Shown piece by piece: positions 3,408 through 63,913 of a DNA stretch of 64,000 bases; position 1 is the stretch's first letter, and each line of letters begins with the position of its first letter. Under the pieces are notes generated by a model that worked only from the letters and a program-made list of their open reading frames with translations, did not search any database and was not told the DNA's origin. The translations under genes were made by a program, and so were the position numbers. This stretch comes from Eledone cirrhosa (Eukaryota), in assembly GCA_964016885.1 (NCBI GenBank), contig OZ024748.1, forward strand, positions 16,244,001 through 16,308,000. The letters run 5' to 3'.

Positions 3408-3455
3408 ATAAATACATATATATACATATATATACATACATGCATACATACATAC

Positions 3456-3490
<35 letters not shown>

Positions 3491-3914
3491 CATGTTTATG
3501 TTTTTGTGCCTATGTGGTGCTTGTATGTAATTCATAGAATGTTACAAAAATATTTTAAAGGAAAAAAGGAAATAAAACAAAACAGGAAAGCACCAATGAC
3601 AATAGGTTTCAGGGAAAGGACATTTAATTGAGAGCAGAAATGATTAGAATATAAAAAAGAAGAGGAAGGGGAATATAATGAGAAGATAAGGAGAAGAATC
3701 AAGTTTTAATATTGTAAGTAGTTTGTTACTGTGTTATATAAAACAATGCCTTAGGTATAAAACAAATAAAATATAAGTAACAAGGTACCTACCTTATTTT
3801 ACCTGTTTATCCCACTGAGAAAATATACTTTATGAAATGTGTCTAGAATACAAATAACTATTTTGTATTTTCTACTTCAGTTCATGTATTGCATTTATTT
3901 TTTATTTTCAATTA

Positions 3915-13195: not shown

Positions 13196-13349
13196 TAAAC
13201 CTATGACATAAATATTTACATTTTATTCCTTACGATAATTTCTTTTCAAAACTTCCAGATGTATATCAGATGAAAAAAAAATTTAATTCAATAGGATTTG
13301 AGCTCAGTTTGTGGTTAAAACCCTGAGCTCAAATCCTATTGAATTAAAT

Positions 13350-14276
13350 TTTTAGTATTCACATTACTCTATATTTACTATTACATTTTCACAGTAAACA
13401 CTTTATTTCACATAATTATCTCACATAATATCGAATCTATAAGATTTTGATATTTATTTTGAGAACAATATCTTAACATCAGTATGAGTAGCTAGTTATG
13501 GTTGGTTACAACAGAAAAAGATGAGAGAATTTTGGCCGGATATGGCCAGTTTGAACAGAAAGAGGTGAGAGAATTCTGGATGGATACAGTAAGTTTAACC
13601 CTTTAGCATTCACATTACTCTATATATACTATTATATTTTCATGGAAAAGACTTTATCTCATATACTTATCTCACATAATATCGAATCTATGAGATTTTG
13701 AAGGTATTTATTTTGAGAACAATACCTTAACATCAGTTTGAGTGACCAGTTACAGCCAGTTTCAATGGAAAAAGGTAGAGAATTCTGGCCGGTTTGAACA
13801 TTAAAGGGTTAAACAACTTTAGAAAATATAAGATTCAAGAAACCACATTACAACAACAGCAGTATAGCTGTATTACATACAAGTATCAACTCTTGATACC
13901 AAACCACCTGAAATAACCCTGAATCTATTATACAAAACTACTTATTTAAACATTCTTACACATGTATTAAATTCAACTCTCGTGATTTTGTTCAACCCTT
14001 TAGCGTTTACATTACTCTATATTTACTATTTTATTTTCATGGTAAAGGCTTTATCTAACATAATTATCTCATATAATATCAAATCTACAAGATTTTGATA
14101 TTATTCATGAGGAGAACAATACTTTAACATTATTATGAGTGACAAGTTACTGTTGGTTTGAACAGAAAGGGTGAGAGAATTCTGGCGGATACGGCCGGTT
14201 TAAATACTAAAGGGTTAAATCCAACTATCTTGAGTTTAATTCTTTAGCATTTACATTATTCTATATTTATTCTATA
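13350..14276. mobile_element. Cluster of four P1 MITEs (13350-13595 partial, 13595-13812, 13991-14218, 14236 onward split by a Helitron)
   Basis: Repeated CCCTTTAGC.TT.ACATTACTCTATA...CTAAAGGGTTAA. The last copy resumes at 15175-15272. Confidence 0.8.
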
Positions 14277-27931: not shown

Positions 27932-28104
27932 TTAATATAGATGAGATTCTACAGGACTAGAACTGTTTCATTCTTTAGAAATCATCATGAACAATGAAAC
28001 AGTTCTAGTCCTGTAGAATCTCATCTATATTAAAACTTTTATACTCTGCAATGTATTGAGTACCTTACTTACTGTGGTTACCTCCGATTCAACCCGGAAT
28101 AACG
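27932..28104 (+). mobile_element. Fold-back family F1, copy 2
   Basis: Perfect arms TTAATATAGATGAGATTCTACAGGACTAGAACTGTTTCATT / AATGAAACAGTTCTAGTCCTGTAGAATCTCATCTATATTAA plus the family tail, between (TA)n tracts. Confidence 0.75.
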
Positions 28105-30709: not shown

Positions 30710-31390
30710 TTATCATCATTTTACGTCCACTTTTCCCTGCTTGCAAAGGTGGGACGGGAACTGATTCTGGCTTGATTTCTACAGTTGGATGCCCTTCCTA
30801 ACACCAACCTCATTTACAGTGAGTGCTGGGTGCTTTTTTGCCGTGGCACCTCCACAACCACTTTACAGTGGAATGATATGGACCCCAGTCCCTATCATCT
30901 CATTTCTACAGCTGAGTAAACTGGAGCAATGTGGAATAAAAGAAATCAAGGAAACAACACATCACCCGGCCTGAGAATTGAACTCAACCTTTCAAGGCCA
31001 ATGCTCTAACCACTAAGCCATGTGCCTCCATATACACATATATATATATGGAGGCACATGGCTTAGTGGTTAGAGCATTGGCCTTGCAATCGAAAGGTTG
31101 TGAGTTCAATTCTCAGACCGGGTGATGTGTTGTTTCCTTGAGCAAGACACTTTATTTTCACATTGCTCCAGTTTACTGAGCTGTAGAAATGAGATGATAG
31201 GGACTGGGGTCCTTATCATTCCATTGCAAAGTGGTCGTGGAGGTGCCACGGCAAAAAAGCACCCAGCACTCACTGTAAATGAGGTTGGTGTTAGGAAGGG
31301 CATCCAGCTGTAGAAATCAAGCCAGCATCAGTTCCCGTCCCACCCTTGCAAGCAGGGAAAAAGCGGACGTAAAATGAAATGATGATGATG

Positions 31391-60959: not shown

Positions 60960-62468
60960 TATTTCTTTTATTTGCCACTAGGGCATCAAAAGTGGGACAA
61001 GTACAAAGGGGGGAGTTTACACAAAAAGGCGTCCTCAATAAGGAGAAGGCAATAACAAAATATAAAAATAAAATAAGATATAACAAAAAATAAAATTTTT
61101 AACAAAATCCTCAATAGAGAGGAGGCGCCTTGGGGGGTCGCACACACCCCCGAAAAAAGTGTGCAACCCTTCTCCTCAGGAGCACAGAGAAGGGGTGCTC
61201 CCTTGGTCTTTTATCTTCCTCACCTATAGTCTGATGTAGAGTGAAGGCCCATTCACACGGGCCATTCTCGCCACTTTCACCCATCTTTCATAGAAACGGC
61301 TGGGGTGCAGCACCTCTCTCTCCATCCTGATCCTTCTTCCGAAATGATATCGGAAGAAACGGACCAGTTGTTGGCCAGAGAGAAAGGTGCCCGACCTCAG
61401 TCCTTTCAGACGCGTCCACCATACAACCTCTTTCGCCATGGCTATTACGCACAGAAACACCGCCTCTGCTTCATCTTTGAAGGGGGGAGGCGGCTTGATC
61501 ATTACAATCGACTCGGTGGTCAACCGGATCGGTCCCACCCTTGACAGCAGTTGTTCGACATAGCCCCACAGATCGGCTACGCCCGAGCAGTGTACTAATG
61601 CGTGTGCAACGGTTTCCTCGTCGCACACGCATCTGGGACAGATCTTTTTGGCGGGGTCCCTACCCGGGCGCCCGTGTCTGTAGAGCCTTTCTCGAACGGG
61701 TAAAGCCCCTCGGTAGCACTGCCAGGCCAGGGACTTCTGGAAGTTGTCCATAGGTCCCGGGCTGAATGTCCTACCGAACAGGCTGGCCAGTTCGTCCTCC
61801 TCCATGTCTAGGGCTTCTCCGAGGGCGTCGTCGCACCTGCTGCGTACCAGCCCTCTATAGAATGTTGCGGTGGAGTCTCCACTGATAACCGGATCCGCCT
61901 GCCAGAGGGCGGTGAGCGCCTGGGCACACTCAGTGTGCCAGGCGCCCAGTTTTCTCGGTCTTTGCTTGACCCAGGATTGCAGCTCGGTGAGTGAGACGAG
62001 TTTGGGAAAGGTTCGTCTTACAAACGAGGCCCACACCGGTTGTCCGGTGAGGAATACGTAGAGGTGCCGTAGCCTTAATGCGTGTTTACGCATCATTAGC
62101 CACGGCATCCCCAGCCCTCCTTTCGAAGGGTGTTGACAGCAGATGGATCTCCTCACCATAGGAGCCCGCCTCTTCCAAAGGAATTGGAAGAGCGCGCGCT
62201 CCATCTTGGTGAGGGTTTCCCTTGGGCAGGGCACTACGGTCAGGCGGTAGTAGATGACGGACGCTATGTAGGTGTTCGCCACCTCCGCCCGACCTTTCAG
62301 GGATAGTTTGCAACTGGCCCACTTCTGGGTCAGTGCAAACACCCTGTTCGTAACCTCCGTCCAGTTTTTCTCCACCTGGAGGTCCGGTCCGAACCAGACC
62401 CCGAGCAACTTCACCGGGCCCTCCGTCCAGCGTCCGACGACGCTATCGGAGGGCATCGGTCTGCCCCT
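60960..62468 (-). mobile_element. Young 5'-truncated L1-clade (Tx1-like) LINE; open ORF2 fragment 61224-62471
   Basis: VKLLGVWFG, W....LSLKGR, CQHPSKGGLG.P, and a CCHC zinc knuckle CPRC...EETVAHALVHC. GC-rich, no stops. 10-bp TSD CATATAGATA at 60950-60959 and 62469-62478. Confidence 0.92.
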
Positions 62469-62932
62469 CATATAGATAGATAGATGGATAGATATATATA
62501 TTTATTGTTATACTTTGGGAGGGGTCATGTTGCCAATTCTGCTAGTATATATATATATATATATATATTTATATGCCATTCTGCTAGTATATATATATAT
62601 ATATATATATATATTAATATATATATATATATATACTAGCAGAATGGCCCGGCGTTGCTCGGGATTTGCTATAGGGTTCTTATATATTTTATATATATTT
62701 ATCCTTATCGAACCTCGTGAAATAAATACGTTTGTTTATATTTTGTTATTGTGTATGCAAAAATATCTGTCCATAAATATATAATTATATATATATATAT
62801 ATATATGTAGGAGGTGAGTTTTATTGTAGTACAATAAAGCAATGCAGATATCGGATAAGAAGCACTCTACAGTTTGTGGGACTGGAGTATGCATAATATA
62901 AGATCAAAAGATGGTTAAAGGAGTTCAATATA

Positions 62933-62999
62933 TTTTATTATGCGCATTTCAAAAACAAACATCATCAAACAATAATATTTGTGTTTTCATCAGATAAAA
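62933..62999 (-). ncRNA. Putative type I hammerhead ribozyme (minus-strand twin)
   Basis: Reverse complement of 63117-63183. Confidence 0.8.
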
Positions 63000-63116
63000 C
63001 AGGAGAACATGATATGAAGGCTAAAAAAACACTTGTTGATAGTGCAGTTTTAATATGTTGATTTAAAACTGCACTATCAACAAGTGTTTTTTTAGCCTTC
63101 ATATCATGTTCTCCTG

Positions 63117-63183
63117 TTTTATCTGATGAAAACACAAATATTATTGTTTGATGATGTTTGTTTTTGAAATGCGCATAATAAAA
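63117..63183 (+). ncRNA. Putative type I hammerhead ribozyme
   Basis: UUUUAU-CUGAUGA-[36-nt AU/GU stem II]-GAAA-UGCGCA-UA-AUAAAA: 6-bp stem I, full core, palindromic stem III, overlapping AAUAAA. Confidence 0.8.
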
Positions 63184-63913
63184 TATATTGAACTCCTTTA
63201 ACCATCTTTTGATCTTATATTATATATATATATATATATATATTAAAATAACAGATTAAAGTTTAAGCAAAGAATCACTGCTTTCACTCTTAACGGGATA
63301 TTCTACCTAAAAGCGGTATGAAGTACATACACTAAGACTAATTGATGTAATCCTTGGCCTTGTTTATTTATATGTTGTTTTTGTGTATGCAAAAATATCT
63401 GTACACGAATATCTATATTAAAATAACATATTAATGTTTAAACAAAGAATCGCTGCTTTCAACCTTGACGGGATCTTCTTAAACTAAAAAAATTAATCTG
63501 GAAAACAGGAAGATGATACTTTGGTTCGTGAAGACGTTCCCTGGCATAAGAATATATATATACACACATACACACTGATCGCGTCATAATGACGTAATGC
63601 AGACATTCAGGCATACAGATAGATATTATGAAGGCGCGACGTCATATCTATGTATCTATCTAAAAAGAGAAAGACTAAGAGAAAGAGAAAGGGATCGCTA
63701 AATCGCCTAATGCGGTCCCTAGGGCATTGAAAATTTGAAATTATTTTTGCTCAAAACACTTCCGGGGTCATACGAGTTACATGTATAAAGTTTGAAAAAA
63801 AACCGGTTGGGTACTTCTCGAGTTTTAGGGAAACAGACACACAGACATCCTCTGTTTTATATATATATACACACACACACATATAGATAGATAGATGGAT
63901 ATATATATATATG

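Follow-up and report, generated by a model that had tools for sequence, protein, structure and literature searches.

A palindromic hammerhead locus in Eledone cirrhosa as a probable young stub of a new Hydra-clade Penelope-like element family

A palindrome that carries the same hammerhead ribozyme on both strands could be a structure built for a purpose or the residue of an element that copies itself, and this is the question raised by a locus near the end of the 64,000-nt stretch of the Eledone cirrhosa genome analysed here (contig OZ024748.1, positions 16,244,001 to 16,308,000 of the forward strand; hereafter the window). Comparison with the rest of the genome indicates that the palindrome is almost certainly a young, ordinary stub of a new family of Hydra-clade Penelope-like elements (PLEs) and not a designed switch. 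A palindrome scan of the window found exact reverse-complement arms of 161 bp each at 62893-63053 and 63063-63223, the longest present (the next arms are of at most 42 bp; spacers below 40 nt). An earlier note on this DNA had described a perfect 331-bp palindrome; the arms are indeed exact, but the 9 bases at the centre (63054-63062) are asymmetric and non-palindromic, the true form being 161 + 9 + 161. The tail of about 85 bp that it placed on one side (62807-62892, 86 nt) and the (TA)n on both sides, about 20 nt each, are present in the sequence. The parts of the locus are given below, where ref denotes positions in L031:2617-6346, a natural copy of the parent element that served as the reference. 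Statements on published systems refer throughout to the accessible text of the papers cited.

62730-62785, plus strand: host repeat left of the insertion, family D10
62786-62806, unstranded: (TA)n, left half of the target tract and a possible masked target-site duplication; uninterrupted host-repeat copies have one (TA)n tract here
62807-62892, minus strand: one-sided PLE tail of 86 nt, which extends to the distal 3' end site (ref 3730 in the parent)
62893-63053, minus strand: tail-bearing arm, a pLTR copy whose 5' end, read directly, lies 10 nt short of the fixed 5' end, at ref 3484
62933-62999, minus strand: type I hammerhead, mirror copy, with C3 at 62993 and a predicted cut after 62939
63053-63223, plus strand: inverted tail-less arm, beginning exactly at the fixed 5' end (63053 = ref 3474) and ending at the proximal 3' end site (ref about 3643)
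63054-63062, plus strand: spacer of 9 nt, made of native element sequence that the tail-less arm has and the tail-bearing arm lacks
63117-63183, plus strand: type I hammerhead, predicted cut after A63177
63224-63243, unstranded: (TA)n, right half of the target tract, from the host-repeat comparison
63244-63304, plus strand: host repeat right of the insertion, family D8
63362-63479, plus strand: uninterrupted host-repeat paralog (empty site), D8 82%, D10 87%

Direct reading of both arms confirmed the reported anatomy, a hammerhead on each strand with its predicted cut site in an AAUAAA. On the plus strand, stem I pairs 63117-63122 with 63178-63183 (6 bp), the core comprises CUGAUGA at 63123-63129 and GAAA at 63166-63169, stem II (63130-63165) has 15 pairs with one C-U mismatch, and stem III is the self-complementary AUGCGCAU at 63169-63176, with an AUA cleavage triplet; the predicted cut after A63177 falls within the AAUAAA. 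Searched against Rfam, the window gave no match (0) at gathering score, and the 46 matches obtained up to E 10 included no hammerhead family, a failure we infer to be likely due to the 15-pair stem II. The miRNA matches in Rfam were rejected, since they merely reflect the long hairpin. The ribozyme resembles the minimal metazoan PLE hammerheads (PMC4209133) in being type I with a palindromic helix III and a long helix II; it differs from those described there in that its young subfamilies have A-U for the usual G10.1-C11.1 (G-C in a diverged one), in a much longer helix II and in being missed by Rfam.

By comparison with the empty site, the palindrome with its tail is inserted into a pre-existing (TA)n of another repeat, because the flanks are another repeat whose uninterrupted form, with a single (TA)n tract, matches 1,225 times in the genome. 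This host repeat has an internal (TA)n, occurs at 62657-62785, 63244-63304 and 63362-63479, and has at least 1,225 copies; another palindrome of the same PLE family, at locus L063, is flanked by it too. The exact arms had been taken to mean that the structure is either very recent or homogenised. Recent origin stands, because the identical 161-bp arm recurs at 7 other fetched loci, two of them long copies, and homogenisation is not needed. Exact arms, together with the finding that no listed contig piece from four sequencing runs spans the whole locus, might also suit an assembly or library fold-back artefact. We consider this scarcely credible: the spacer is asymmetric, the tail one-sided and the insertion into a repeat with 1,225 empty-site copies clean, older palindromes have diverged arms, the same type of junction occurs in short-read contigs, and similar centres with varied junctions lie at 1,796 sites.

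A 21-mer from the 3' half of the hammerhead has 23,586 exact matches in the 3.0-Gb genome (11,818 + 11,768) versus 0 for the reversed control, so the hammerhead repeat is not a product of chance. A search for the parent element, which the earlier note had proposed, found a full-length PLE of the L031 type with the same hammerhead and tail. L031 has an open frame of 821 codons, together with a long 3' UTR and a 3' pLTR that bears this same hammerhead; it also includes an inverted copy without the tail, the tail itself and (TA)n. Tandem and/or inverted pLTR arrangements are found in L031, L035, L036, L041, L043 and L044, the tail sequence in tandem copies continues into the 5' region of the ORF, and an insertion preference for (TA)n was observed for the parent family.

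A sequence search with the parent protein (P0001) returned 25 relatives at 31-42% identity; the only one of them with a name, from Argonauta, is at 37%. The fold of P0001 was predicted with a mean pLDDT of 75.7, and the three best PDB matches to it, at E 2e-08 to 7e-08, are telomerase RTs; the YRDD motif is present. Pfam found no RT or nuclease family in 6 parent ORFs, RVT_1 being recognised in 1 of 12 aligned relatives and not in P0001, and a sequence-profile search matched no solved structure to the protein. The tentative GIY-YIG assignment comes from motif alignment, in which LIYECK..TYFGST is aligned with VIY..YIG of the relatives (Pfam GIY-YIG in 1 of 12 relatives, E 0.0012); the whole-protein fold search listed no nuclease.

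Placement in the Hydra clade comes from motifs compared by eye with published descriptions. P0001 and P0002 both have DKT (HSDKTNN), the Hydra-clade change from DKG; the linker CxCX5C reads CNCRIKNKC; and CxxC and CxH surround a conserved E and N (CNLC..E..N..CLH) in place of CCHH. As in the Hydra clade of C-terminal EN+ PLEs (PMC8557442), these DKT, CxCX5C, CxxC and CxH motifs go with a single ORF for RT and a putative EN, a 3' hammerhead and a (TA)n target. Compared with that clade as described there, the N-terminal RWK motif is RWT or RWI here, RW being kept and the third residue varying among relatives too, the unit is 3.7 kb versus generally <3 kb, and the tail is 86 nt versus 30-40. Stem II has 15 pairs versus 3-7 in the listed Hydra motifs of the same paper, and an Asn-rich stretch precedes the linker. 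Hydra-1_Obim (PMC8557442) has another hammerhead sequence, compared by eye, and is a different family. The Asn/Ser/Thr-rich stretch lies between RT and linker at P0001 residues 600-677 (L031:2629-5094), is of low confidence in the predicted fold and absent from relatives, and resembles the N-rich inserts of Adineta PLEs (PMC3846280).

Much about the locus has precedents. It is standard for PLEs to have copies that are inverted and 5'-truncated, tails on one side and microsatellites as targets (PMC8557442). In Schistosoma, Cervera and De la Pena described in 2014 pairs of hammerheads that lie on opposite strands at a distance of 100-700 bp (PMC4209133), and Craig et al. (2021, PMC8557442) list Penelope-13_HM of the Hydra clade as having an inverted, 5'-truncated copy and a hammerhead on each strand. 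Inverted stubs, paired hammerheads, one-sided tails and (TA)n targets are thus already published, and the locus itself is ordinary retroelement debris. What is probably new is a family-wide map of two priming sites together with a probable capped start bearing an extra G; literature searches (open-access text and a few supplements) did not find a fixed 5' end, a cap G or a two-primer model described for PLEs.

A tight pattern search found short head-to-head centres at 1,796 sites in the genome. Their sequences vary, the self-complementary CATATG being commonest. Among 54 distinct short pairs from fetched, selected loci, the window's included, the tail is one-sided in 48, on both sides in 1 and on neither in 5, and the arms within a stub differ at a median of 1 in 95 nt. 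Well-aligned stubs differ from L031 by 0 to 17 and derive from different parent subfamilies. For 100 listed matches of the 21-mer, the 3' end falls at ref 3636-3652 in 51, at 3725-3730 in 47 and elsewhere in 2, and the 5' start at ref 3473-3474 in 22 and at 3440 or further upstream in 44. Beyond the proximal 3' end site there is a bulged hairpin (window 62860-62890, minus strand), and tandem copies (L041) have a weaker one after the end of the tail.

Could the short palindrome be a non-autonomous unit, MITE-like or retrozyme-like, that transposes from one or a few masters? Nearly the same centre at 1,796 sites, one centre sequence being very common, and the identical arm at 7 other fetched loci are what such a unit would leave, but we judge it improbable. 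The centres and the arm lengths vary, the tail is attached to the longer or to the shorter arm, solo and non-overlapping forms have the same ends, and arms that are alike within a stub belong, between stubs, to different parent subfamilies. A unit-replicating palindrome of the MITE type, with fixed terminal inverted repeats, was rejected for the varied centres, the varied arm lengths and the one-sided tail. Non-LTR retrozymes (bioRxiv 10.64898/2026.07.22.740005; PMC7229834) are likewise non-coding, have a type I hammerhead and are linked to PLE pLTRs; unlike their head-to-tail arrays, the window holds a single head-to-head pair identical to the parent's own pLTR, and this class was set aside for that reason.

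The stubs share a fixed 5' end. Genome-wide pattern counts at ATATGTTGATTTAAAACT (ref 3474 = window 63053) found it preceded by G in 2,557 copies, by A or T in 2,820, by a C outside the native context in 2,210 and by the native TC in 6,766, which makes 7,587 of 14,353 copies non-native; the same kind of count at three other positions gave 184, 276 and 573. On reading 30 G and 30 A/T loci, 1 and 2 respectively proved to be point changes, the others joining varied partner ends or flanking DNA. Contig joints from run X1 agree, 14 of the 15 listed (of 46) landing on 63052-63057 with varied partners, though the query carried none of the native sequence that precedes 63053, and X1 is possibly the source sample. 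The native base before ref 3474 is C. In a hand count of the first 100 of 143 listed (TA)n-flanked ends, 71 have G and 29 C, and those out of register with (TA)n number 55 with G versus 5 with C. Solo ends in pure (TA)n make up 14 of 20 fetched G loci, and L289 has G before both arms. The sequence at ref 3474 is ATATGTTGAT, the site reading TTTTC/ATATG (the slash marks the end) 63 nt before stem I, which we take to resemble the pyrimidine-A initiator consensus.

The pile-up at one base and the extra G suggest that transcription of the parent RNA probably begins, with a cap, at ref 3474 (window 63053). An untemplated 5' G in L1 and SVA insertions has been attributed to copying of the cap (PMC3287187); full-length L1/SVA copies resemble the stubs in this G at the full-length 5' end, and unlike them use a poly(A)-primed APE-type enzyme. 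The D. virilis Penelope has its promoter and start in the pLTR upstream of its hammerhead, the start lying 46 nt before an intron that ends at the hammerhead (PMC2377424; PMC4209133). In the window copy, where the two arms overlap by 1 nt, the extra G is missing, as it is from 5,030 of the 7,587 non-native ends. In five of five tandem copies (L035, L036, L041, L043, L044) the start of the upstream unit lies elsewhere than 3474, on its 5' or on its 3' side, and long templates whose 5' ends differ therefore exist as well. A spacer of a single G or C within a palindrome was not accepted as evidence for a cap, because it matches the native C of the partner arm.

The same 5' end could instead be a strong RT stop or a processing site of the same element, with the palindrome formed by self-priming, either by CATAT snap-back or on an antisense template. 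Many Gs among the 30 loci have another possible source: the partner arm's native C at 5 loci, a partner G with which they overlap, or a snap-back, for which an internal CATATC about 45 nt downstream of the fixed end would template G, TG, ATG or CATG. The base before the extra G is T in 22 and G in 8 of the 30, L003 is a clear snap-back of this kind, the CATATG at the site is self-complementary and the commonest centre, and self-priming on an antisense template has been argued for rotifer PLEs (PMC3846280). We nevertheless think this account unlikely. The G also precedes solo ends in pure (TA)n, 16 times as AG, and fold-back can give neither non-overlapping arms nor a tail-less arm that reaches further 5' than its partner.

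The latter point rests on the geometry of the arms. In the window the tail-less arm has 10 nt absent from the tail arm and the tail arm has 86 nt absent from the tail-less arm; neither is therefore a fold-back copy of the other, because each holds sequence missing from the other. Of 46 junction rows scored by a rough script, which counted one insertion twice and in which chance matches blurred several ends, 25 have a tail-less arm that extends further 5', 8 a longer tail arm and 10 arms of equal length, with 3 unclear; fold-back could also give the 8 and the 10. Arms do not overlap at all in some insertions (L076, L084, L099). Two cDNAs made from two nicked strands would account for the palindromes, since the arm geometry and the non-overlapping arms fit such an origin and it agrees with the behaviour in vitro of the purified PLE protein PAc, which nicks both strands and extends them, begins synthesis at two internal sites delimiting the tail and works on uncleaved RNA (PMC11167929).

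On balance, we consider it likely that the locus arose by a two-armed pLTR insertion into (TA)n, in which both nicked strands primed cDNA on uncleaved sense RNA that was copied to or near the probable capped start. A promoter in the upstream pLTR of tandem copies would start RNA at ref 3474, and the RT-endonuclease would nick both strands of a (TA)n tract. One nick would prime at the tail end (ref 3730) and the other 86 nt nearer (ref about 3643); use of these sites in the upstream pLTR would yield cDNAs of only 170-257 nt that end at the cap, sometimes copied as the extra G. The joining of the cDNA ends would then use short overlaps, among which the self-complementary ATAT/CATATG is the most frequent, or take place with bases added. 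The hammerhead would ride along, conserved by selection on the parent and in need of a dimer or protein help to cut, and would stay uncut in RNAs copied across the cut site. That the templates were uncleaved is suggested by the position of the two 3' start sites, downstream of the cut, and by the fact that most arms extend across it.

The two-primer reading has close parallels. The PAc Poseidon PLE likewise has two RT starts bounding the tail, extension of both strands and an uncleaved template (Frangieh et al. 2024, PMC11167929), but belongs to another clade and its hammerhead overlaps the start codon. Adineta Pen2a, Pen2 and Pen3a (PMC3846280) and the D. virilis Penelope (PMC2377424) share the head-to-head arrangement, a small palindrome or overlap at the junction, an optional one-sided tail and a pLTR promoter; unlike those inversions, thousands of ORF-less stubs here pile up at one 5' base with an extra G. 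The Adineta inversions were explained by self-priming on an antisense template (PMC3846280), which fits most of the arm geometry here poorly; sense-strand synthesis from two primers is favoured over that model by the geometry of the stubs. Twin priming of L1 also gives inversions from two priming events, and its arms are not known to duplicate sequence. The arms of the stubs, unlike these, usually overlap and form palindromes.

More tentatively, the stubs may record the whole PLE reaction: a dimeric RT-endonuclease, two fixed RNA sites, a capped and uncleaved RNA copied including its cap, telomerase-like slippage or (TA)n addition, and head-to-head joining. New (TA)n stretches lie between the arms of some palindromes, at the junctions of L286, L289, L293, L294 and L301, and L297 and L300 contain repeated units of G plus the first bases of the element, which look like telomerase-like, reiterative copying of the template's 5' end. 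If the reading is true, head-to-head PLE palindromes need no antisense template, and the pile-up of 5' ends maps PLE promoters from DNA alone. For PLEs, the closest relatives of telomerase, the accessible text of PMC8557442 and PMC11167929 still treats the way in which inverted ends and tails arise as an open question. Exact coordinates for the promoter and both priming sites are offered by the stubs, which are young, number in the thousands and share two 3' ends and one 5' end, all fixed, as well as a G that likely derives from the cap.

Copying of cleaved RNA, which would leave an excess of copies beginning at the cut site, was dropped as an explanation, there being no clear excess over an AT-matched control. 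A non-native base stands at the cut in 276 copies, of which 17 of 30 were scored as true ends by script (16 once a small deletion is set aside), or about 150, and at the first control position in 184 copies, with 4 of 30 scored as true ends. The AT-matched control 3 nt upstream of the cut gave 573 copies; out of 30, the script scored 14 as true ends and reading left 5, or about 95, the remaining rows of this control being a diverged subfamily, point changes or a deletion.

Whether the ribozyme has a function of its own was approached through conservation and predicted folding. Among 207 unique copies no core variant reaches 5% except at N7, and the frequent variants in stems I and II retain pairing (9 of 9), T/C variants being common outside the stems; since some search patterns contained the 3' half of the core, its conservation is in part a product of the search, which does not hold for CUGAUGA. 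In 15 hand-picked copies, whose relatedness limits the shuffle control, 93.2% of cells are paired and two pairs show double changes: A-U to G-C at 10.1-11.1 in 5 copies, and G-C to A-U in a stem III pair in 4, with the palindrome retained. Each is probably a single event in a diverged subfamily, and the second bears out the earlier assignment of stem III to the dimer-acting palindromic kind. The diverged subfamily (L257, L268, L269, L270, L273, L208) has G10.1-C11.1, the core variants CUGAGGA, CUGAAG and UUGAAGA, and AUACGUAU as stem III.

Folding predictions give stem I a pairing probability of 0.74-0.86 in the plus arm read from 63053 and of 0.05 in the tail-bearing arm. In the 434-nt read-through RNA all hammerhead pairs have probability 0.0, so that the complete masking of the ribozyme proposed for such a transcript is indeed predicted. 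Stem III has probability 0.0 in the monomer; the octamer duplex is at -10.5 kcal/mol, and the hammerhead dimer as drawn at -31.9 versus -42.1 for the predicted cofold minimum, both of which use the stem III duplex. The arm RNAs fold no better than shuffles (z -0.56, z -1.63). The hammerhead thus looks dimer-type or protein-assisted and under selection in the parent element, with cleavage a prediction. With the tail attached (62807-63053, minus strand), stem I is predicted to be displaced (0.05 vs about 0.85), and the tail region might keep the template RNA uncleaved.

These predictions bear on the proposal that the locus is a functional RNA switch, masked as dsRNA on read-through and active when transcribed from its centre. 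Folding agrees with it as far as stem I goes, formed in the plus arm and lost in the read-through RNA, and the centre is the likely start site of the parent. The proposal of a purpose-built structural switch was nonetheless not supported, and we hold it to be very improbable: the structure is one of thousands of equivalent PLE by-products, the window copy is identical to other young ones and nothing indicates selection on the locus, stem III is predicted not to form in the monomer and stem I hardly to form in the tail-bearing arm, and in vitro the hammerheads of metazoan PLEs show poor cleavage (PMC4209133) or require protein for it (PMC11167929). With the stubs, the genome contains about 1,800 sequences that could form hairpins of 160 bp, and dsRNA might arise from them.

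Other features of the window were seen in passing. A second small palindrome at 62575-62648 has GC-containing 13-nt ends around (TA)n and 37-bp arms, and is preceded by a partial direct repeat (62531-62574). Three further exact palindromes, with arms of 31-42 bp, lie at 13277-13353, 27932-28033 and 30993-31086. A 5'-truncated non-LTR retrotransposon ORF of 425 codons with a weak zf-RVT match (E 6.7e-06) occupies about 61200-62470 on the minus strand, and a longer relative of it is found in L049.
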